From the NCBI GenBank assembly GCA_021513715.1, contig CP084167.1, positions 658,117-722,116 of the forward strand: 64,000 nucleotides of DNA. Reading direction: 5' to 3'. The stretch is from Candidatus Heimdallarchaeum endolithica (lineage in GTDB: Archaea > Asgardarchaeota > Heimdallarchaeia > Heimdallarchaeales > Heimdallarchaeaceae). A program made the position numbers and the translations under genes. Under the pieces are notes generated by a model. The model was not told where the DNA came from, searched no databases, and was given only the letters and a program-made list of their open reading frames with translations. Positions 16,942-29,628 of the stretch are shown here, piece by piece. Positions within the stretch are counted from its first letter, which is position 1; every line of letters begins with the position of its first letter.

Positions 16942-17432
16942 CAAAAATGAATATCTCTATTTAAAAATAATTATTATAATATTTACTACAAAAAATTGAA
17001 TTTAGGAATGAGTTAGAGAAAAGAAAGTATATTCGACTGGAAAAGAAAAAGGATCAAAATATTTTATAATAATAAGGAGTTTTTTCACTTTCTTTTTCTG
17101 ATTAACATTTCTGGTTCTCACAATTATCTATCTTGTGATTGTGAAAAACTTGAAAAATTCTATTCATAAAAACCTTTAGTAATAGAAACATAATGTACAA
17201 AAAGTTTATTGAAAATTCTTACAATAATATCAGTCTTTCTTTCGATATAGTCTACTTTATTTTCTTCACCTAATTTTTTGTTTACTTTCAAAAATAAAAA
17301 AATAGAAAAAAATAATTTTAAGTTATTAGAAAAAAAGTAATTGTTTCTTTGACTTATTACTTTTAATTAACCCTATCTTATTTTAATAATAACTTTATAT
17401 ATTAAAATCTTCTACCTACTAGAAATCACAAG

Positions 17433-18587
17433 GTGAAAAAGGTGTCAACCAAAAGTAATGAAAATCAAGTTGTATCCACTCAAACCAGTGAGAATACAAA
17501 CATTTTGCGTTTACCAGCAGAAAAGAAGTACGAAAAAGAGTTAGAGTTTCTTCATTCTATTGATAAAGGCAAGAAGCCAACAAATTGGTACCTTTCTCCT
17601 CAGATGTTACGAACTTTTATTTTGGGTTCAAATGAACACAATATGAAAATAGAAAAAAAGTTTTACGGCGATCAGAGTTTAGTAGAAAGAGCAATAGTTA
17701 CATTAGCGAGTGATAGGGGATTATTACTTATAGGTGATCCTGGTACAGGAAAATCTTGGTTAGCAGAACTTCTTGCAGCAGGAATAAGTAGAAATTCTAC
17801 TCTTGTTGTACAAGGGACTGCTGCTACTACAGAAGACCAAATAAAATACTCATGGAATATCGCTTCAGTAATAGCTTCTGGCCAATCTCTTGAAACTCTT
17901 ATTCCATCTCCAATAATGCAAGCTATGGAAAAAGGATGTATTGGACGTTTTGAGGAACTTACTCGTTGTACTTCAGATGTACAGGATTCTCTTATTTCTA
18001 TTCTTTCAGAAAAATATATTTCTATTCCTGAACTTTCTGAGCAAATTGTCCATGCAAAAGAAGGGTTCAATGTTATTGCAACTGCTAACAGTAGAGATAA
18101 AGGAGTAAATGATCTTTCCTCTGCATTAAAACGGAGATTCAATTTTGTAACAATACCGATAGTAACGGATACAAAAACTGAGAAAAACATAATCAACTTC
18201 CGAATCAAGGATCTAATGGAAAAGAAAGGTCTAAGTACATCAGTTCCACAACCACTAATTGATATTTTATTAGAAACTTTCAACGCTCTTCGAGATACAA
18301 ATAAATCAAAAAAGAATGAAAATGAAAGACTTGAATCTTCTCTCTCAACAGCAGAACAAATAGGTATCTTAGAAGATGCGCTCTTACAATCGATATTTTT
18401 CACGGAGTACACTCAAGAGCAAGCACTAGCTCGTTCAATAATTGGAGGTTTAACTAGACGTTTGCCTGAAGATCTTACGCTCATGAACAAGTTTTGGCAT
18501 TCTGTTGTCAAAGAAAAAAGTCAAAAGTCTGAAAACTGGAAAAAGTATTTCTCTGAAGGAAAGAAAACAATAAAGACTTTTACATGA
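17433..18587 (+). CDS. MoxR/AAA_5-like AAA+ ATPase (operon gene 1)
   Basis: Walker A GDPGTGKS, Walker B-like IGRFEEL, sensor ATANS, RRF arginine; GTG start. Confidence 0.7.
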   Translation: MKKVSTKSNENQVVSTQTSENTNILRLPAEKKYEKELEFLHSIDKGKKPTNWYLSPQMLRTFILGSNEHNMKIEKKFYGDQSLVERAIVTLASDRGLLLIGDPGTGKSWLAELLAAGISRNSTLVVQGTAATTEDQIKYSWNIASVIASGQSLETLIPSPIMQAMEKGCIGRFEELTRCTSDVQDSLISILSEKYISIPELSEQIVHAKEGFNVIATANSRDKGVNDLSSALKRRFNFVTIPIVTDTKTEKNIINFRIKDLMEKKGLSTSVPQPLIDILLETFNALRDTNKSKKNENERLESSLSTAEQIGILEDALLQSIFFTEYTQEQALARSIIGGLTRRLPEDLTLMNKFWHSVVKEKSQKSENWKKYFSEGKKTIKTFT

Positions 18588-18603
18588 ACAGAGGTAGGTA
18601 TTA

Positions 18604-21537
18604 ATGGCAACAAGTGGCTCCTCTTCAATTTCGGAACAACTTGATACAAATAAAAGTCTCTTAAAGCAACTGATAGAGGTGTCAAAGGAAATTGAGAAAG
18701 AAAAACAATCAAATTCTGTTGAAATTTTTTTAAAGACAATAATCAAAGATATCAAAAGAGTAGAAAATGAAACATTAGAGATTATTCCTGTTTCACATTA
18801 CTCTCTTTCTTCTGCTGTTCATGTATGGCAGAGATTATCAGAAAAAAAACCTAAGGTTATATTTCTTGAAGCACCAGAGGATTTTGAGAGAGAATTGGAA
18901 AATATAAAATATTGCACCCCTCCTGTAGCTTTTCAAGGAATATTAGTCAAAACAGAAGAAATTGACCATGTGTTCTTGCCTATTAACTCTTATACAATCG
19001 TTTCAGAAGCTTCTGCAGAATATCAAGCAATAAAATATGCTTTTGAAAACCCAGGAACAGAGCTAATTTTTGTTGATGCTCCTTGTACTAATCGTGTAAA
19101 ATGGGAGCAAAAATATCTTGCAACTAAAAAATATAAAGCAAAAAAAGAAGAGATTAATGCTAATAACTACAATTTCATTATTGGAAACACGATTCCAACA
19201 AAAAAGGAATTTCTAATCACACTTCTTGAAAAAACAAATTTCGATGATTATAGTCTTTGGTGGGAACAAGTAGCTGAAAATGCACTTTTAGATCTCTCTT
19301 ATGATAATTATAGATATGTAATGGTTTTATTAGGGAGTGTTTTTCGTCGCTCTGGTTCTGATGATAAATTAGAAATAATTAGTTCTCTAAGAGATAAATT
19401 CATGTGGAATAAAATTAAAAGTGTGATAAATTCAAAAAAACTTCAACCAGAAGACTGTGTTTTTATTTGTGGAGCAGCACATGCAATTGCAACAGTTGAA
19501 GAATGGGGAATGAAAGGAATAAAGAAAAAAAATAGACGCAGTAGAAAATCAGAATGGAAATACGGAATAAATCAAGTCGACTACAATTTAATAGATCAAA
19601 TTGCTAATAAAACTCCTGGTTCCACTTCTGAAATACATGCGAAGTGGGATGCAATAAAGAGATCTGTTTACAAAAATAAAAAAGAAGAAATAACTTTAGA
19701 ACTAGACAAGTATAATCAAGCTGTTCATGATAAAATACTCACTTGGGCTTCTGAAACAGTGAAAAAAGCGAGAAAAGCAGGTTATATTACTAGCCCTGCA
19801 GACAGTATTGCAATTGTAGAGCTTACATACGCTCTTAAAGAAATTAGAAATAGAGCACGAATCACACCACGAGAATTTATTGATGCGGCAGTTACAAGTA
19901 TTCAAAAAAACGATTTATATCTTCAACCAGTAGAGGAACTAATTGATGAATACATATTTCCTAATGTTTTAGGAAAAGTAGGGTATAAAGCCTTGCCAAG
20001 CTTGGCAAAAGATGTTTTTGATCGACTTTCTATCTTAAAAATTTCAAGAGATTCAAACAGAGTTCAAAGAGTGCTATTAGATTTAGATAAACAACCAGAA
20101 CTCAAACCTGTTTCTGATTTACTCTGGATGTTAAAACACATGAATATTAATGTTGTTCCAATTGCTGGAAAAAAAACCCTTGGAAAACATATTAAACAAG
20201 AATCATGGGATTTATACATCTACAAAAACAAAAACCCTCTGATTTGGCTTTCATTAGAAGGAATATCAGTAGAAGAAGTTTTTCGTTCCCGAATAACGAA
20301 AAAAGTGAAAAAAGATCCTTCAATTTTATCTATTTTAGAAGCTATAAAATCGGTACTTACTTATTTGAATTATAAGGATATATTATTATTCACTCTCTCT
20401 AATTTACTATTTTCTAATCTTGAAGGTATAATATTTGAAGATCAAAAAAAACTATATTCTTTAACTTTAGAGCTTTTAAACTACTTAAGAACTCTCAAAG
20501 AAGGTATCCCAAAATGGTTTATCTATTACATTGTTAGTTCTTACAGACAATATTGTCAAGAGCTAGTTAAAGCAGCAGCAGATAACTCAATCTCTGCAGA
20601 ACAGTTTTCCATGATTTTCTCTTTCATTTTCAAAATCGAAGGAATAGCCCTAACAGAAGGAGCAAGTAGAGAAGAATTAGAAATAGCAATCAAACTAACT
20701 CTTGACTTGGATGAAATTCCTGAAAATAAGAAAATTATAGCTTTAGCTGCTAATAGTTTGCTTAAGCAAGAAAATGAAAAAGAACTAAGACAAATTATAT
20801 CAAAGGTCTTCTGGAATCCACAAATTATTCAATCAGCTTCAGAAATTGTTTTAGCTTTAGTATATTCTTCAAATTTTGCTCCCAACCTAATATTTCTTTT
20901 TATAGAATTCTTAGACCAATGTTTTCGAAGATTGAGCGATAATCTTATCTCTCAGTGGTTACCACTATTGACTTCACAAATGAAAAAGTTAGATCAAAAC
21001 TATGTTATACAAATCGCTCAAATAGTCAAGAGGTATTATAATCGAGATCTCAAACAAATTGAAGTAATGAATGTTTGGTACGATGAAAGTTTATATGCCA
21101 CGATAACAGACAGAAGAGAAAGAGAAACAGAGATAGCAATTGAAACTGAAAATATTATTATATCTACTAACTTTATTCATAATTTTATTTATGCTTTTCC
21201 AGAAACACTTAACCAACTTTGCTTACTATTAGGTTTTGAACAAATAAAACAATTTCCACTATTTAGTCAATCAACTACTTCAATTAGTTCAATTGAAAAA
21301 ACAGTAGAAAAAGAGATTCCACTTATTACAAGAATTCTAATTAAGAATCCTGCAACAATAATCAATATTAAAAAAATTTTTGAGATAAAAAAAGAGTTCA
21401 CTATCACTAAACAAGATTTGGAAAAATCTAATAAAATTGACAAAGAAAAAGAAGATCTAAAGACATGTGACTCTCCATTTTCTATTTTAAAATCTCATTC
21501 TCAAACCCTTGAGAAAACTAGTGAATTATTAAGGTGA
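18604..21537 (+). CDS. Large uncharacterised protein, possibly DUF5682-like (operon gene 2)
   Basis: 977 aa; N-terminal IPVSHYS...VIFLEAPED...PPVAF resembles, from memory, the N-terminal motif of DUF5682-type proteins; otherwise alpha-helical with no catalytic motif recognised. Confidence 0.5.
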   Translation: MATSGSSSISEQLDTNKSLLKQLIEVSKEIEKEKQSNSVEIFLKTIIKDIKRVENETLEIIPVSHYSLSSAVHVWQRLSEKKPKVIFLEAPEDFERELENIKYCTPPVAFQGILVKTEEIDHVFLPINSYTIVSEASAEYQAIKYAFENPGTELIFVDAPCTNRVKWEQKYLATKKYKAKKEEINANNYNFIIGNTIPTKKEFLITLLEKTNFDDYSLWWEQVAENALLDLSYDNYRYVMVLLGSVFRRSGSDDKLEIISSLRDKFMWNKIKSVINSKKLQPEDCVFICGAAHAIATVEEWGMKGIKKKNRRSRKSEWKYGINQVDYNLIDQIANKTPGSTSEIHAKWDAIKRSVYKNKKEEITLELDKYNQAVHDKILTWASETVKKARKAGYITSPADSIAIVELTYALKEIRNRARITPREFIDAAVTSIQKNDLYLQPVEELIDEYIFPNVLGKVGYKALPSLAKDVFDRLSILKISRDSNRVQRVLLDLDKQPELKPVSDLLWMLKHMNINVVPIAGKKTLGKHIKQESWDLYIYKNKNPLIWLSLEGISVEEVFRSRITKKVKKDPSILSILEAIKSVLTYLNYKDILLFTLSNLLFSNLEGIIFEDQKKLYSLTLELLNYLRTLKEGIPKWFIYYIVSSYRQYCQELVKAAADNSISAEQFSMIFSFIFKIEGIALTEGASREELEIAIKLTLDLDEIPENKKIIALAANSLLKQENEKELRQIISKVFWNPQIIQSASEIVLALVYSSNFAPNLIFLFIEFLDQCFRRLSDNLISQWLPLLTSQMKKLDQNYVIQIAQIVKRYYNRDLKQIEVMNVWYDESLYATITDRRERETEIAIETENIIISTNFIHNFIYAFPETLNQLCLLLGFEQIKQFPLFSQSTTSISSIEKTVEKEIPLITRILIKNPATIINIKKIFEIKKEFTITKQDLEKSNKIDKEKEDLKTCDSPFSILKSHSQTLEKTSELLR

Positions 21538-21544
21538 AAAAATA

Positions 21545-22024
21545 ATGGGTAATAAAATAATAGAAGAAAAAGAAGAAAAAAACAATTTTTATCTTTCTAT
21601 TATCCCTAGAAATACACCTCCTAGAAGAAATTATAAAATCAAAAAAGTCCCTTTTATGGAGTTTAGAGATAACAAAATTCAAGGAGTAGTTTCTAGCGGA
21701 AGTAGTTTTGAACGAGTATATGTTTGTGTTATAAATCTAGAAGACAAAACATTTACATGCCACACAAACAACAATCGTCCTTGTGGAGGACTAAGAGAAA
21801 GAATGTGTAGTCACATCAAAGCTCTACTTGATGTAGCACTACGCAATCAGGAAACTGAATTACTGTTTATGCAATACGATTTTGACTTTTTTGACCCTGA
21901 TGGAAGTAGACGCTATTCTGATGTTTTTACTCGCTTTCAAGAACAATTACATTTTCTAGAAATTAAAATGGATGAGAAAGAAAATTTTCCTGAAATGAAT
22001 TGGTTTGTAGGTGATTTATCATGA
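21545..22024 (+). CDS. SWIM-like zinc-finger protein (operon gene 3)
   Basis: FTCHTNNNRPCGGLRERMCSHIKALL fits the SWIM pattern with the usual second Cys replaced by His. Confidence 0.5.
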   Translation: MGNKIIEEKEEKNNFYLSIIPRNTPPRRNYKIKKVPFMEFRDNKIQGVVSSGSSFERVYVCVINLEDKTFTCHTNNNRPCGGLRERMCSHIKALLDVALRNQETELLFMQYDFDFFDPDGSRRYSDVFTRFQEQLHFLEIKMDEKENFPEMNWFVGDLS

Positions 22025-23331
22025 ACCAAATAATTATTGAAGAAAAGACTCTTGATGAAATAAGAAAAGTTCAATCTGTTTTGCAAGAACTTAGCGAGAT
22101 CTTCATGATAGGGCTAGGTAAACTTACCAAGAAAGAAAAAGAAATTTTCGATAAAGTTAATGAAGGTTTTTCGCATACTCCTCTCTCTGAAGTTCTTGCA
22201 AATAGTTTTTCCAAACTCAAAAACTCTGATTTTTCTGAAGATGTTATTACTCCCCTTGTTTATGCTATCTTATCTCTTCAAGGAGCAATATATGATGCTT
22301 TATTCACTACTGTAGGTGAAGAAAGAACATTTACAGAAATAGGTAAAGTAGAATATTACGATTTTTCACAAGAAAAAGCTGTTCTTATGGAAAATATAAG
22401 AAAATGGTTAATTAGCTTACTCATTAGCGGATTTAAAGATTTACAACTAGATAATATAGATTCGTTTTCCTCTGTGCTTGAAACAATTTCCTCATATCCT
22501 GAATTAACCCGATTAAATGTCTTGTTGCGAGGATTAATCTGCGATTTTAAATTTACACAGAATAAAAAAGAACTAAAAAAATATGCTATTCGATTTCTGG
22601 ATCTTTGGACAAAAAGTTATTTTCTCACTTTAATGGAAATAAAAACTAAAAATAAACGAATTGAAAATGCTAAATTCTATCCCATAGCCTATCAACACTT
22701 CATCCACGAACAATTCTTTGTAGGAATAATTAGAGGAATTGTACAAACAAAGGATAACAGTCTATTTGTTAATTTAGAATTTCCTAGTTTTGTATCACCT
22801 CTTATTCCATCAAAAGAGTTTTACAGCTTAATCTATAAAAACAATGAAGAACTTTTTACTGCTCTTAAGCAATCCAAGGTTGTGATTATTGAAGAAGCTT
22901 CTCTAAGTCCTCAAGGAGTAATGCACATAGAAAAATTTACAGTTTCTGATAAATCATTCAATATTAAAGAAGTTTATGAGAATACAAATAATTTCAAAGA
23001 TATCTATTTAATAAAAAAACCTTCTTTGGATAGACATCATGTACATTACTTTCTACCATTTTTTATCGAAGAAAAACTGCCAAAATTGAGTACCACAGAG
23101 GACACTAAAATTAAATTTAGAAACAATAAATTCAAAAAAAATTCAAAACATTTTAAAAAACCTAAATTTGTTGAACTTCGTTACGATAACGATTTCTATT
23201 GGAATATAATTCAATTTTATTTACCAAAGTTTCCAGAAGAAATTTTGTATTTTGAAACAAAAAATATCAAAATTAAAACAGAAACTTATGAGCTTATGAA
23301 AGAAAAAAGTAGTAAAATACTTAGGAAGTGA
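22021..23331 (+). CDS. Uncharacterised protein (operon gene 4)
   Basis: 436 aa; 4-bp overlap with the SWIM gene; no motif recognised. Confidence 0.5.
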   Translation: MNQIIIEEKTLDEIRKVQSVLQELSEIFMIGLGKLTKKEKEIFDKVNEGFSHTPLSEVLANSFSKLKNSDFSEDVITPLVYAILSLQGAIYDALFTTVGEERTFTEIGKVEYYDFSQEKAVLMENIRKWLISLLISGFKDLQLDNIDSFSSVLETISSYPELTRLNVLLRGLICDFKFTQNKKELKKYAIRFLDLWTKSYFLTLMEIKTKNKRIENAKFYPIAYQHFIHEQFFVGIIRGIVQTKDNSLFVNLEFPSFVSPLIPSKEFYSLIYKNNEELFTALKQSKVVIIEEASLSPQGVMHIEKFTVSDKSFNIKEVYENTNNFKDIYLIKKPSLDRHHVHYFLPFFIEEKLPKLSTTEDTKIKFRNNKFKKNSKHFKKPKFVELRYDNDFYWNIIQFYLPKFPEEILYFETKNIKIKTETYELMKEKSSKILRK

Positions 23332-23335
23332 ATAA

Positions 23336-24946
23336 ATGTCTTTAAAGAGCCATAATATAAAAGCTGCAACATATTGGAATACACTATTAAGTTCGATTAA
23401 CAGCAAAAATAAATTAGAAAATATTATCCCTAAACTTTGCAAAGAAAACGGGCTTCCTCAAAACTTTCTAGAACAAAACTTTGATTTTAAAGATCTTACT
23501 CTTCCTGAAGAAAAACAATCAGAAGAAATTCAACAATTTCAAAAGCTTCTTGAAGAAAAACGAATAGATTTCAAGAATTCTTCTCTAAATCAAATTATTA
23601 AGCAAATTATGACGATGAGAGAAGAACAAAATCCAGAGGATAAAAAAACAAGTTCTTCCTCTTCCAACTTTACGAATCTTCAACGTCTTGTTTTTTCTAA
23701 AGTATTTCAAGAAATTTTTCAACCTGTACAAAAATCTAAAGTAACAGCAAATGATTTTTCAGAATGGAAAGAAAATAAACAACTTTGTCAAGAAGCATTC
23801 GAAGAAATTACTCAAATAGAAGTAGAATTAGAAAAACAAAAACATTCAAAGAAAGATTTGGAAACAACGATTGATGATATTTCACTTTCTGAAAAAGAAA
23901 AAGAAAAATTAACTGATGAATCACCTATTCCTCTAATTGAAGGAGAAAAAGCCAAAGTTTCATCTAAAAAAGGAAAAGGAAAACAAAAGTCTTTAGAGAA
24001 ATCACCTATTGGAGGAACAGAAAAAGGGCAAGGTTTTTTTGTCGATAGAAGAGAGTTGGAAGAAGTTTTTGATCTTATTGAGAATGAAATGATTTCAAAG
24101 ATGAAAATCATTGAATTATTACAAGACGATGAATTGGCAAAAAAAGTCAGTCCTTCAATAGGTATAGTTGAACAACTTCTTCATTTAAAAAAGAGTTTAC
24201 CTGCTTCTGCCATGACAAATGCTAAAATGATTATAAAAAAATATGTACGAGAAGTATCAGATCTATTTAAAACCAGATTTGATAAATCGATCAAAAAAGT
24301 ACCGAATCCTGATATTGTGCCAAAGAAAGTTTTTAGAAATCTAGATCTTCAAAGAACAATCTGGAAGAATTTGCCAAATTATGACATACAAGAAAGAAAA
24401 TTGTACGTAGACCGACTCTATTATCATCGTGCAGGAAAAAAAGAATTACCCTCTAAAGTAGTGATAGTAGTTGACCAAAGCGGTTCAATGGTAGAAGCAA
24501 TGGTACAAACTGTCATTCTTGCATCAATATTTGCTCAGTTACCTAAAGTAAATGTAGATTTGCTAGCTTTTGACACAAAAGTAATTGATCTAACAAAATA
24601 TGTTAATGATCCCTTAGAAGCTTTATTAAAAACTAATCTAGGAGGAGGAACATCAATAACTTATGCTTTAAAGGAAGCACAAAAGAAAATACAAAATCCA
24701 TCAAAAACAGCTCTAGTATTGATCACTGATTATTATGAAGGAGGAAACGCATATGAAAAACTGTTTAATACAATTAAAGATATCAAAGATAATGGAACGA
24801 AATTCATTTCTATTGCTTCTATGACAAGAAAAGGTTATGTCGACGTCAATAGTAATTTTGTACATGCGTTAAAGAAAGAAGGAATAGAGACAATTATGGG
24901 AAATTTCGACAGATTAATAGAGTTGTTAAGAAAATATCTGTTGTAA
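23336..24946 (+). CDS. vWA-domain protein with complete MIDAS motif (operon gene 5)
   Basis: C-terminal vWA fold with DQSGS ... GGGTS ... ITDYYEG; acidic/lysine-rich coiled N-terminal half. Confidence 0.7.
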   Translation: MSLKSHNIKAATYWNTLLSSINSKNKLENIIPKLCKENGLPQNFLEQNFDFKDLTLPEEKQSEEIQQFQKLLEEKRIDFKNSSLNQIIKQIMTMREEQNPEDKKTSSSSSNFTNLQRLVFSKVFQEIFQPVQKSKVTANDFSEWKENKQLCQEAFEEITQIEVELEKQKHSKKDLETTIDDISLSEKEKEKLTDESPIPLIEGEKAKVSSKKGKGKQKSLEKSPIGGTEKGQGFFVDRRELEEVFDLIENEMISKMKIIELLQDDELAKKVSPSIGIVEQLLHLKKSLPASAMTNAKMIIKKYVREVSDLFKTRFDKSIKKVPNPDIVPKKVFRNLDLQRTIWKNLPNYDIQERKLYVDRLYYHRAGKKELPSKVVIVVDQSGSMVEAMVQTVILASIFAQLPKVNVDLLAFDTKVIDLTKYVNDPLEALLKTNLGGGTSITYALKEAQKKIQNPSKTALVLITDYYEGGNAYEKLFNTIKDIKDNGTKFISIASMTRKGYVDVNSNFVHALKKEGIETIMGNFDRLIELLRKYLL

Positions 24947-25058
24947 ATTGAGTTTGCAAACGTTCTCTTTTTTTGTTCAATTTATAATAAAGAAAAATCA
25001 ATAACATTTCTTTTTTCATTCTAACAACTTTAAATAATACCTTTTTTCGCACAATTCT

Positions 25059-27088: not shown

Positions 27089-28414
27089 ATGACTACTTCC
27101 GAGGAGTCAATACCAAGTGATAAATTTCTGAACATAGAAAAAAATAAGATAGCAAATGAAGAGATATATAAAGAAACAGATAAGGAAAAAGTAATTATAA
27201 CCCCCAAAACAATGAAAAAAAGGAGTAAATTAGATTTATATTACTTTAGCACTGAAATAATACTTATGATTGCAGGTATTGTTATACTATTTTTAGTTTC
27301 AATTAAACCTTCTCTTTTCTTTGAGCATGATTTGATAATAAATAGAGATGAGTATGGAACAGTAATTAGCACATATATGTATTTTGGTGATTTATCCCCA
27401 TTGGCATTAGGACTTACAGCTGTATGTTTGATGTTTCCTCTGTTAAACAACTATCTGTACATTTTTGTACTAGAAAGTGAAAAAAGGTTAAAAGCTTACA
27501 TAATTCGAGCTGCCATAAATGCAATAGCTTTTGCAGTAATACTAGCCATAAATGCAAATGGAATTTATTTTGACAATAATTATTCACTTGCTGTTTTTAT
27601 TGCTTTCTATACTCTTTTTGGGGACTTTTACTTAAGAACACTTTTATTATTTACAAGGAAGCAATCTAAAAGCATTTTATTCAGCAAACTAGAGTCAGCT
27701 TCACCAGCAGAAATAGAATGGAAAAAATACAACAAAATTTCAGGTTACCTAGCTTTAATTTTAGGAATATTCATGCTGCAATTTATCTGGTTGATTTACC
27801 ATCTTGTAATTAGGCCTGTAAAAATTAACAGAACTAAGGATCAACTAATCATTGAATTTTTGGAATTTGGTCAAGAGGTAAATTGTAGTAAAATTGCCCT
27901 AGAATTAGCTATATCATTGGAAGAAACAATTTATAGAATAAAGAGGCTAGTATTTAAAGAGCAAATAACTGGAGAGTTTACCCGTTATGGGTTTATTTTA
28001 CATGAGATAAAAAATCCAAAATGGTTCTCAAATAAAGTATCAGAGAAATACGAATTGTTTATGCTAACTGTGGAAATGTCGGAAAAAGAAAAGCATGTTA
28101 ACAGATTCTTTGATATTGCAGAAAGAAAAAAGATGAACGTAGACGAGTTAAGAAGAATTTTTAAGATAAAAGAAGACTATATTATAAGAGATTTCATTTT
28201 GTTACTACCTCCTAATACAGTTAAATTAAAACGGAATATAGTATCAGGAAAACAGTTTATACTCTTTAACTACGAGCTAATCTTAATGAAAAGAAAGCAA
28301 ATAAAAGAGAGCTTGCTCTATCATTTTGACGAAGTATTCAAACTGAAAATTGCTGATAAAACTCTTACAAAAACAAAAGCAAAAGCAAAAACAAAAGCAA
28401 AAGAAAAAAAATAA
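27089..28414 (+). CDS. Membrane protein with cytoplasmic winged-helix-like domain
   Basis: N-terminal TM helices; central region with HTH-like pattern; lysine-rich C-terminal tail. Confidence 0.4.
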   Translation: MTTSEESIPSDKFLNIEKNKIANEEIYKETDKEKVIITPKTMKKRSKLDLYYFSTEIILMIAGIVILFLVSIKPSLFFEHDLIINRDEYGTVISTYMYFGDLSPLALGLTAVCLMFPLLNNYLYIFVLESEKRLKAYIIRAAINAIAFAVILAINANGIYFDNNYSLAVFIAFYTLFGDFYLRTLLLFTRKQSKSILFSKLESASPAEIEWKKYNKISGYLALILGIFMLQFIWLIYHLVIRPVKINRTKDQLIIEFLEFGQEVNCSKIALELAISLEETIYRIKRLVFKEQITGEFTRYGFILHEIKNPKWFSNKVSEKYELFMLTVEMSEKEKHVNRFFDIAERKKMNVDELRRIFKIKEDYIIRDFILLLPPNTVKLKRNIVSGKQFILFNYELILMKRKQIKESLLYHFDEVFKLKIADKTLTKTKAKAKTKAKEKK

Positions 28415-28557: not shown

Positions 28558-29628
28558 ATGATATGGCTTTCTTTATTTTATTCAATTCTCTCCTTGGTAA
28601 TCCTAATTGCTTTTCTTGCAGTTATTATTATAAAACAACTTGAACTTCGATGTACAGCTGTTTATTTTCTAATAATCGTTATTGTTTCAATTATTGGATG
28701 GGTTTTAGGAGATATGTTACAGATAGTTTTTAGTAGTTTGGAAAATAGAGGATTAGTGCTTATATTTTCTCGTTTAGCAACAATAAGTAGTATGATTGCT
28801 ATGATTAGTACAGTTTTATTTGCAAGAGTCTTAACTGCTAGACAAACATTAAACTCTACAACTGTAATTATTGCATTTGTTATGTTTAGTGCTGTTGTTG
28901 CACTAACTTTAAGCTCAAGCTATAGAGTAATTGACCCACCAAAGGAAGTTGAGTTTTATAAAACAGAAGCAGAACTCTTATGGGTTATATTAGACGGAGG
29001 TATGGTGATTTTTGCCGGTTCCATTTTCCTCTACTATCTTGTTAGACAAAGAAAAATAGTACAAAACAAGTATTTACCAGTTTTGACTTTAATGAGCGTG
29101 GGAGTAATCATTGCTTTCTACGTAAGTACCATCCTTTACACAATTTATGCAATATGGTTTATAGTTCCTTTATTGCATTTAGAACTAGTAAGTGCAAGTA
29201 TAGGGGCATTAATTATAGGAATCGCTATGATTAAAGGAGGAAAAGAAGCAATCTATTATTCTTCTAGAGTTTTTTCACTACATATTTTTGATGATGTGGG
29301 AATAAGCTACTATGCTAGTGTATTTCAGTCAGGATATATTGTGGATGAACAACTGATCTCAGGAATAGCCTCTGCGATTATAAGCTTTGCAAAAGAGCTA
29401 GTAGGAAAAGATGTTTTTCCAAGAGAAATAGATTTAGATGACTACTCACTCTTACTAGCTAAAAAAGAGAATACCATAATCCTAATTAGTGTTGAATACC
29501 CAACAGCTCACTTAAGACAAACTATGAACAATATTATTGAAAACTTTAGGATGGATATGAGTGATGATGAAATAGGGGAACTTGTTGAAAATTACATTTG
29601 TTTTGAACCAAGAAAACTAGTGCATTAA
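28558..29628 (+). CDS. Polytopic membrane protein with C-terminal roadblock/LC7-like domain
   Basis: About 7 TM helices, then a C-terminal domain (GISYYASVF...LISGIASAIISFAKELVGK...ILISVEY) that aligns with the C-terminus of the 53976-55976 protein and with MglB-type roadblock domains. Confidence 0.45.
   Translation: MIWLSLFYSILSLVILIAFLAVIIIKQLELRCTAVYFLIIVIVSIIGWVLGDMLQIVFSSLENRGLVLIFSRLATISSMIAMISTVLFARVLTARQTLNSTTVIIAFVMFSAVVALTLSSSYRVIDPPKEVEFYKTEAELLWVILDGGMVIFAGSIFLYYLVRQRKIVQNKYLPVLTLMSVGVIIAFYVSTILYTIYAIWFIVPLLHLELVSASIGALIIGIAMIKGGKEAIYYSSRVFSLHIFDDVGISYYASVFQSGYIVDEQLISGIASAIISFAKELVGKDVFPREIDLDDYSLLLAKKENTIILISVEYPTAHLRQTMNNIIENFRMDMSDDEIGELVENYICFEPRKLVH

Follow-up and report, generated by a model that had tools for sequence, protein, structure and literature searches.

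What kind of machine is encoded by five closely packed genes of the archaeon Candidatus Heimdallarchaeum endolithica, and do these genes belong to any characterised system? The genes, numbered 1 to 5 below, occupy positions 17433–24946 of a 64,000-nucleotide stretch of contig CP084167.1 (positions 658,117–722,116 of the forward strand), which is referred to as the window. An initial annotation had read five same-strand open reading frames (ORFs) as an operon for an uncharacterised multi-component machine. The ORFs lie exactly where it placed them, the operon is real and the interpretation is supported, although the closest relative, the yehLMPQ operon of Escherichia coli, was not named in it. 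We are confident that the operon belongs to the YehL-type MoxR AAA+/VWA/DUF5682 family, of which it is a Heimdallarchaeial representative with a distinct architecture that we term type A. Structure prediction and residue conservation indicate, moreover, that the DUF5682/YehM protein probably carries a hydrolase domain of the TIKI/TraB type with a candidate catalytic set that is intact.

Relationship to the E. coli yehLMPQ operon

All five genes are on the forward strand. Gene 1 (17433–18587; 384 residues) encodes a MoxR AAA+ ATPase of the YehL subfamily with a Pfam AAA_5 domain, gene 2 (18604–21537; 977 residues) a YehM-like DUF5682 protein, and gene 3 (21545–22024; 159 residues) a small, predicted zinc-binding protein with a putative SWIM-derived CCCH module. 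Gene 4 (22021–23331; 436 residues), the start of which overlaps the gene 3 stop by 4 nucleotides, is an orphan, and gene 5 (23336–24946; 536 residues) encodes a YehP-like von Willebrand factor A (VWA) protein of the CoxE type.

The yehL-yehM-yehP-yehQ genes (b2119–b2122) likewise form a tight co-directional operon, with an AAA_5 protein, DUF5682 directly downstream, a CoxE-type VWA protein with a metal-ion-dependent adhesion site (MIDAS) and a zinc-finger protein. YehL is 40% identical to gene 1 over 359 of 384 residues, the N-terminal extension included (E = 7e-88). YehM matches PF18934 with E = 2.4e-98, and its N-terminal domain aligns with that of gene 2 (E = 4e-8) and shares the invariant residues described below. 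YehP, a VWA_CoxE protein, is 29% identical to gene 5 over 259 residues (E = 7e-42). For YehQ, a 614-residue SWIM protein (PF04434), no sequence similarity was detected with either gene 3 or gene 4. The E. coli operon differs further in having four genes, in the order AAA-DUF5682-VWA-SWIM, in that YehM, at 759 residues, is missing about 200 residues of the window protein, and in the WGR/DUF4132 set yehF/H/I that lies upstream of it. The window operon is without such a set: no WGR/DUF4132 gene occurs in the 64-kb window, and one was found near only 1 of 84 type A loci, the set of related loci described in the next section.

That one locus belongs to Virgisporangium aliadipatigenens (L025:795-3518, minus strand), in which a YehI-like DUF4132 gene is directly upstream on the opposite strand. 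A 719-residue protein, P0047, combines an N-terminal WGR domain with the gene 3 and gene 4 domains in one chain. Together the two provide a link between type A operons and the WGR/DUF4132 companions of yehLMPQ.

Of 5426 complete E. coli genomes, 5353 carry the E. coli operon itself (K-12, NC_000913.3:2204596-2210944), nearly always once and on the chromosome. Identity to the K-12 operon is only 90–95% in 934 genomes, a divergence that seems high for a core operon. YehL is one of seven MoxR subfamilies and has been described only as uncharacterised (PMC3893208), and yehL and yehM are silenced by H-NS (PMC3686432). The searchable literature contains no mention of DUF5682 or DUF5691 and no functional study of yehLMPQ, of YehQ or of a MoxR, SWIM and vWA combination.

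A tblastn search of plasmids with gene 1, followed by inspection of the annotated neighbourhoods, revealed three architectures. In type A, that of the window, the bacterial order is g3-g4-VWA-AAA-DUF5682, with gene 3 (167 residues) and gene 4 (about 450 residues) annotated as 'hypothetical', for example in Fulvitalea. Type B1 has the order DUF4132-AAA-DUF5682-VWA-SWIM (E. coli, Bacillus mycoides, Iodobacter) and type B2 the order SWIM-DUF5691-AAA-DUF5682-VWA (Deinococcus, Rhizobium, Hymenobacter, Methylosinus). The last corresponds to the bacterial clusters of SWIM, MoxR-AAA, vWA and DUF5682/DUF5691 genes that the initial annotation had cited, and which do exist. Like type A, type B2 comprises five genes, in which the AAA+/DUF5682/VWA core is preceded by genes for two non-enzymatic proteins, a zinc finger being the first. 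It differs in that its zinc-finger protein is a PF04434 protein of about 460 residues, rather than the 159-residue CCCH protein of gene 3, and in that no relation of gene 4 to DUF5691 could be detected; the type B2 ATPase is about 40% identical to gene 1, against about 61% for type A. In a neighbour-joining tree of gene 1, type A forms one clade, in which a monophyletic Heimdall group is the sister of every bacterial member sampled; types B1 and B2 fall outside the type A clade.

Two plasmid loci with one of these architectures deserve mention. On a plasmid of Hymenobacter radiodurans (L091:9124-12034), DUF5682 is annotated as three consecutive fragments and is probably a decaying copy. On that of Methylosinus trichosporium OB3b (L092), no VWA gene is listed after DUF5682 in a plasmid gene table that is incomplete.

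Conservation of the five-gene unit

Relatives of gene 2 were found in 547 genomes in a scan of 100,044 species, each represented by one genome. The best 80 of the 547 comprise six Heimdall genomes, many Actinomycetes, two cyanobacteria, one member of the Myxococcales and one of the Desulfococcaceae. Searches of 84 related loci with hidden Markov models (HMMs) made from the window proteins placed all five genes together in about 70, most of the exceptions being truncated contigs, and the type A unit is also present in Bacteroidota (Fulvitalea, checked with the same HMMs). The initial annotation had allowed that the cluster might not hold together in related genomes; it does, across two domains of life, and we therefore consider the clustering to be far beyond chance.

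Each of the five window genes has an orthologue in the bacterial type A loci (Actinomycetes, cyanobacteria, Myxococcales and Fulvitalea). Their order, however, is rotated: the bacterial series begins at gene 3 (g3-g4-g5-g1-g2, as in the actinobacterium Plantactinospora, which has all five) and the Heimdall series at gene 1 (g1-g2-g3-g4-g5), so that both represent one circular order. Median identities between the window proteins and their bacterial orthologues are 61% for gene 1, 30% for gene 2, 38% for gene 3, 22% for gene 4 and 43% for the C-terminal 300 residues of gene 5. The flanking genes differ among the window, the other Heimdall loci and the bacteria, and the five genes therefore constitute a self-contained module.

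Gene fusions bear on how the products are arranged. Fusions of gene 3 to gene 4 occur in four or more separate 50%-identity clusters or lineages (L004/L006, P0054, P0057 and P0047), and in one lineage the fused protein has 597 residues. In a type B operon of a Streptomyces plasmid, a VWA domain forms the C-terminus of a 1257-residue 'DUF5682 family protein', where it is matched by the gene 5 HMM at residues 985–1236 with E = 5.9e-39, and there is no separate VWA gene. These fusions, taken with translational coupling, argue for physical contact between the products of genes 3 and 4 and between those of genes 2 and 5. From these sequence relationships we infer that the five products may form one physical complex.

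Desulfococcaceae bacterium HSG8 encodes a DUF5682 relative (L078:3027-5726) that shares 31% identity with gene 2 and around which the other four genes were not detected in approximately 13 kb. It is possibly a stand-alone or otherwise partnered variant.

A predicted hydrolase-like domain in the DUF5682 protein

Gene 2 matches PF18934 (DUF5682) with E = 1.6e-26 and 93.3 bits against a cut-off of 26, over residues 76–585 only; the resemblance to DUF5682 proposed in the initial annotation was thus correct. In the AlphaFold2 model (pLDDT 72.8), a confident N-terminal α/β domain and a middle region precede confident helical repeats, and the C-terminal tail is of low confidence. The N-terminal domain (residues ~55–330; 18766–19593, plus strand) is predicted to have a parallel β-sheet core, as in solved members of the TIKI/TraB/ChaN/Ere group, and the repeats (residues ~556–810; 20269–21033, plus strand) form a putative ARM/HEAT-like α-helical scaffold.

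Alignment of the N-terminal domains of 12 diverse DUF5682 proteins, which cover types A, B1 and B2 and include YehM, revealed that H65, E89, S137, E139, D158, W220, E225, R248, R263, M267, G290 and H293 are invariant. The candidate catalytic residues among them are H65 (in PVSHYS), E89 (FLEAPED), E139 (SEASAEYQ), D158, R263 and H293 (CGAAHA). In the model, H65, E89, E139, D158 and H293 are each situated at the C-terminal end of a predicted parallel strand, the usual position of the active site in such α/β folds. The order of the motifs, [GP]-x-x-H-x-S, E, E-x-x-x-E, D, R-[ED]-x-x-M and G-x-x-H, is one that we take to be like that of TraB/TRABD proteins, and it served purely as a lead. TIKI enzymes have a catalytic set of two histidines and two glutamates (PMC6254334), to which H65, E89, E139 and H293 suggest a match, as a candidate equivalence drawn at the level of the set and not residue by residue. 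What is new here is that the N-terminal domain of DUF5682 appears to have a TIKI/TraB/ChaN-like fold with an invariant 2His/2Glu set.

The gene 2 domain differs from the TIKI/TraB/PrgY/ChaN/erythromycin-esterase superfamily in giving no sequence-profile match to it, in being set in a scaffold of about 1000 residues and in being coupled to an AAA+ and a VWA protein. To our knowledge, such coupling is known for no characterised TIKI-family protein. Across 13 DUF5682 members there was no Pfam match to PF01963 (TraB_PrgY_gumN) at E ≤ 10. Profile searches of the Protein Data Bank (PDB) with DUF5682 linked it to no solved chain, the matches being spurious and those to designed TIM barrels repeat artefacts, and Foldseek comparison of the gene 2 model with the PDB returned nothing at E ≤ 0.001, only insignificant helical-repeat matches.

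The ATPase and the VWA protein

Gene 1 matches Pfam AAA_5 with E = 1.8e-38. The initial annotation had described its AAA+ motifs as intact, and this stands for the Walker A motif (GDPGTGKS, residues 101–108), sensor 1 (ATAN, residues 216–219) and the arginine finger (in KRRF, residues 233–236). The Walker B motif, by contrast, is a variant of the form hhGRFEE, in which GRFEE (residues 171–175) has Glu-Glu in place of Asp-Glu; it is kept in at least 90% of 83 homologues.

Gene 5 matches VWA_CoxE over residues 334–505 (E = 2.3e-29; 102.9 bits against a cut-off of 26.4). Its MIDAS (24473–24745, plus strand) is complete, as had been claimed, and consists of DQSGS at residues 380–384, T439 in GGGTS and D465 in ITDYYEGG, these residues being conserved in at least 90% of 79 homologues. 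The pairing of a MoxR-class AAA+ protein with a vWA/MIDAS protein that the initial annotation saw here is accordingly real. The N-terminal segment of about 245 residues in gene 5 is unconserved and rich in Lys and Glu, and probably serves as a linker; next come a conserved helical domain and, after it, the VWA domain.

Genes 3 and 4

Neither gene 3 nor gene 4 matched any Pfam family even at E ≤ 10. Gene 3 is 40% identical to its Plantactinospora orthologue (E = 1e-34), and phmmer, run exhaustively against 1.84 billion representative proteins, yielded 120 relatives, of which about 70 are small proteins of the operon type. The candidate zinc motif is C72-x7-C80-x7-C88-x-H90 (CHTNNNRPCGGLRERMCSH; 21758–21814, plus strand), within a conserved core Y-x-[CV]...C-x-T-[NQ]-N-x-x-P-C-G-G-x3-4-C-[KS]-H. 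C72, T74, N76, C80, G81, G82, C88 and H90 each reach a conservation of 90% or more among 99 relatives, giving a CCCH set of C72, C80, C88 and H90.

The SWIM-like character that had been ascribed to gene 3 survives in part. Alignment of its profile with the type B2 SWIM proteins by hhalign is weak but in register (E = 0.0021, probability 13%), with Thr in place of the second Cys of CxC and a seven-residue insert, NNNRPCG, that brings a new Cys; the corresponding comparison with YehQ was not significant. PF04434 is touched by 2 of the 99 relatives (best E = 0.0021), and gene 3 itself gives no match to it at E ≤ 10. The CxCxnCxH ligand signature of SWIM is not present in gene 3 and its relatives, which have C-x7-C-x7-C-x-H instead. 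With no Pfam match, a weak profile link only and CCCH ligands, a canonical SWIM domain was rejected, and we regard gene 3 as probably SWIM-derived and likely to work in a similar way.

In the other gene 3 relatives the domain is C-terminal to pentapeptide repeats in 44 of the 99 scanned, and BRCT is also present in 10. The zinc module thus also ends a separate family of large (250–900 residue) pentapeptide-repeat proteins (P0070–P0141, for example P0077, P0086 and P0095). In the ten with BRCT that domain is N-terminal, and DNA-mimic repeats are combined with the SWIM-derived finger. As far as we have seen, this pairing of pentapeptide repeats with a finger of the gene 3 type is uncharacterised.

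Gene 4 is predicted by modelling to comprise an N-terminal four-helix bundle and a β-rich C-terminal half. It is 20% identical to its Plantactinospora counterpart (E = 6e-16), and word-indexed homologue searches gave 3–7 proteins only. Invariant residues include DLW and DRH, and archaea and bacteria share a C-terminal tail, E-[KR]-[SA]-[SG]-[KR]-[IL]-L-R (E-x-S-S-K-I-L-R). Assignment to DUF5691 was rejected, as hhalign comparison of 6- and 80-sequence gene 4 profiles with four DUF5691 proteins gave E values of 0.16–0.38. An equivalence with the C-terminal part of the YehQ/SWIM proteins was likewise set aside, alignments of shallow and deep profiles not being significant. A short motif, L-x3-W-L-x2-L-x3-G, is seen in both sides of these comparisons and proves nothing.

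Comparison with known MoxR–VWA and defence systems

None of the characterised MoxR/vWA systems that the initial annotation had named as possible homes for these genes claims them in Pfam, NCBIfam or PADLOC. In NCBIfam, GvpN (TIGR02640) scored 43.1 bits against a cut-off of 266.8 and MadB 36.5 against 475, and the CbbQ and NorQ models were absent from the matches. Pfam Mg_chelatase reached 17.2 bits against a threshold of 20.3, and bpMoxR 18.1 bits against a cut-off of 27. The best PADLOC matches of the window proteins (E = 1e-4 to 5e-3) were to generic ATPase regions only, and E. coli YehI, K, L, M, P and Q and the type B2 proteins gave no significant match. There are no cox genes (coxMSL/CoxF) among the nine flanking ORFs, and the flanks of related loci are equally unrelated. 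The match of gene 5 to VWA_CoxE indicates a broad VWA subfamily and not the CoxE system. With profile matches sub-threshold or absent and flanks unrelated, CoxD/E, NorQ/D, CbbQ/O, GvpN, Mg-chelatase and RavA/ViaA were rejected.

The MoxR–vWA ternary conflict systems, defined by a VMAP, iSTAND, FtsH or β-propeller third component (Kaur et al. 2020, PMC7159879), resemble the window operon, as does CoxD/CoxE, in combining a MoxR-class ATPase, a CoxE-type vWA protein and dedicated extra components, and they have a similar phyletic bias to multicellular bacteria. None of these third components, and no variable effector domain on the VWA protein, is found in the five window proteins. Neither SWIM nor TraB is mentioned by Kaur et al. 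2020 (PMC7159879).

Operon layout and surroundings

The untranslated gaps between the five ORFs are 16, 7, −4 and 4 nucleotides. Values of 17, 8 and 5 had been given in the initial annotation; these are coordinate differences and each is one too many, while the overlap of −4 is unchanged. A GGTGA-like Shine–Dalgarno motif stands 5–9 nucleotides before the ATG of each of genes 2–5. In gene 1, a GGTGA motif at 17432–17436 precedes the second GTG, at 17442, which for that reason is probably the true start, giving a protein of 381 residues. A TATA-box-like TTTATATA (17394–17401, plus strand), 32–39 nucleotides upstream of the first GTG and at the end of a 490-nucleotide non-coding gap of about 27% G+C, is a candidate archaeal promoter, and a T7 run (24968–24974, plus strand) 22 nucleotides past the gene 5 stop is a candidate archaeal terminator. 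Both are weak evidence, since the genome is AT-rich (30% G+C) and such strings are common.

No transmembrane segment was found in any of the five proteins. The G+C fraction of the operon, 0.304, equals that of the window, 0.305, and no tRNA, Rfam match or meaningful flanking repeat was found around it; on these grounds a mobile element or recent transfer was rejected. The nine flanking ORFs encode DUF3784, cupin, methyltransferase, YhhN, CMD, CpXC and Dak2 proteins and two proteins without a Pfam match. Beyond the downstream neighbours of the operon lie two consecutive ORFs, at 27089–28414 (plus strand, 441 residues) and 28558–29628 (plus strand, 356 residues), with no Pfam match at E ≤ 0.001. 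The AT-rich gap of 490 nucleotides upstream of the operon (16942–17432) contains no ORF and no Rfam match. An AT-only 19-nucleotide inverted repeat (16921–16939/16965–16983, 89% complementary) lies across the stop codon of the preceding gene, YhhN, of which it may be the terminator. An antisense ORF of 246 residues (17672–18412, minus strand) lies wholly inside gene 1 and is almost certainly spurious, because the AAA+ protein on the sense strand is strongly conserved.

Proposed mechanism and alternatives

In MoxR–VWA pairs, an ATP-driven AAA+ ring remodels a protein that is held by the MIDAS of the VWA partner (PMC7159879, PMC3893208). In the mechanism that we propose, gene 1 would supply a hexameric AAA+ motor and gene 5 a VWA co-factor or adaptor, the MIDAS metal of which would clamp an acidic residue on a client or partner protein. 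Gene 2 would be a large scaffold whose N-terminal TIKI/TraB-like domain acts as a His/Glu hydrolase, either a peptidase or an esterase, and genes 3 and 4 would constitute one zinc-finger module that acts either as a sensor or as an adaptor for the substrate. As the ring hydrolyses ATP, it would act through the VWA protein to remodel the complex so that the hydrolase is exposed or activated, or so that a substrate is loaded and released. The invariant Glu of the gene 4 tail, E428, would, as pure conjecture, be a candidate MIDAS ligand.

Both the hydrolase activity and its gating by ATP are proposed here by analogy, and we hold this gated-hydrolase mechanism tentatively, at somewhat less than an even chance. 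Weighing the secure family assignment and the AAA+/MIDAS-gated hydrolase mechanism together, we slightly favour the account as a whole. Several points weigh against it. The ATPase competence of gene 1 is assumed, given its Glu-Glu Walker B motif; some proteins with the TIKI fold are non-enzymatic, ChaN binding haem and PMT being without the motif; and the model of gene 4 is poor (pLDDT 60), so that its role is a guess.

Could the operon instead be an NTP-dependent conflict system, acting against phages or other invaders, in which the AAA+ and VWA proteins set a threshold and the TIKI-like domain is a toxic effector released on infection? The enrichment in Actinomycetes, filamentous cyanobacteria and Myxococcales recalls the MoxR–vWA ternary systems (PMC7159879), some members are plasmid-borne, and some adjoin genes for type I restriction–modification, a PDDEXK nuclease, a recombinase or VapBC. 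H-NS silencing of yehL and yehM (PMC3686432) is frequent for horizontally acquired genes, the 22% identity of gene 4 to its bacterial counterparts speaks of fast evolution, and there are toxins with the TIKI fold, RRSP and HopBA1 (PMC6254334). We nevertheless consider a conflict role unlikely: PADLOC gave no significant match for the window, E. coli or type B2 proteins, and the defining third component and variable VWA effector are absent. Archaeal and bacterial versions of the AAA+ protein share 61% identity, the operon is flanked in the window by housekeeping genes, and its G+C content is that of its surroundings. Being single-copy and chromosomal in 5353 of 5426 complete E. coli genomes, yehLMPQ is, moreover, core and not a variable island. 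This core status and the conservation of the ATPase would suit a housekeeping role such as that of a maturation chaperone, in the manner of CoxD/CoxE, NorQ/NorD, CbbQ/CbbO, RavA/ViaA and Mg-chelatase, which would insert a metal or cofactor into one client, or activate it, with DUF5682 and genes 3 and 4 as accessory assembly factors. Every characterised MoxR–VWA pair works in this way (PMC3893208, PMC7159879), gene 5 is of the CoxE-type VWA family and gene 3 is predicted to bind zinc. However, no client gene is conserved beside an operon whose flanks differ in the window, the other Heimdall loci and the bacteria, GvpN and MadB fall far under their cut-offs, the CbbQ and NorQ models are absent and Mg_chelatase is sub-threshold. 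The invariant 2His/2Glu set, moreover, argues for catalysis over mere binding, and a chaperone of this kind we judge improbable.

The remaining alternative, which we regard as very improbable, takes gene 3 as its starting point: the SWIM-type zinc module would detect a nucleoprotein or the ends of DNA or RNA, and the AAA+/VWA motor would dismantle or process the complex. The associations on which it draws are the fusion of the gene 3 domain to WGR in P0047, its place C-terminal to pentapeptide repeats, which are DNA mimics, and to BRCT in the sister family, the WGR/DUF4132 genes directly upstream in type B1 operons, E. coli included, and one Streptomyces variant with a 1639-residue 'DNA-binding protein'. 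All of these, however, come from relatives and not from the window locus, whose operon lacks genes for WGR, DUF4132 and BRCT proteins, and DUF4132 is near a single one of the 84 type A loci. The conserved core is without nuclease, helicase or recombinase, and SWIM domains also mediate protein–protein contacts.

Returning to the gated hydrolase, a more specific version can be put forward as speculation of low probability. YehL-type operons would constitute a hitherto unrecognised class of ATP-gated intracellular proteases, in which a MoxR ring and a MIDAS adaptor control an endopeptidase of the TIKI/TraB type carried on a helical scaffold, and the SWIM-derived module selects the substrate. The target would be a specific signalling or cytoskeletal protein, and the machine would be common to Heimdallarchaeia and morphologically complex bacteria. 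RRSP, a characterised TIKI-fold enzyme, cleaves GTPases of the Ras family, which are abundant in this archaeon; no evidence here joins the two.

Significance

The initial annotation had attached weight to the occurrence of the operon in an archaeal genome that also encodes eukaryote-like GTPases. This context adds nothing demonstrable, the system being common to bacteria and not to eukaryotes, and, as no counterpart in eukaryotes was seen, the locus has no direct bearing on eukaryogenesis. Its interest lies elsewhere. The YehL subfamily is present in nearly every E. coli genome, and yet the searchable literature gives it no function, client or mechanism. The locus shows that the family, which occurs in at least three architectures, extends to the Asgard archaea with the unit intact. 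Of the new points, the most useful is the TIKI/TraB-like, seemingly catalytic domain of DUF5682/YehM. With it, an anonymous 'DUF operon' becomes the subject of an AAA+/MIDAS-gated hydrolase hypothesis that can be tested in E. coli, and for which the residues to mutate are named.

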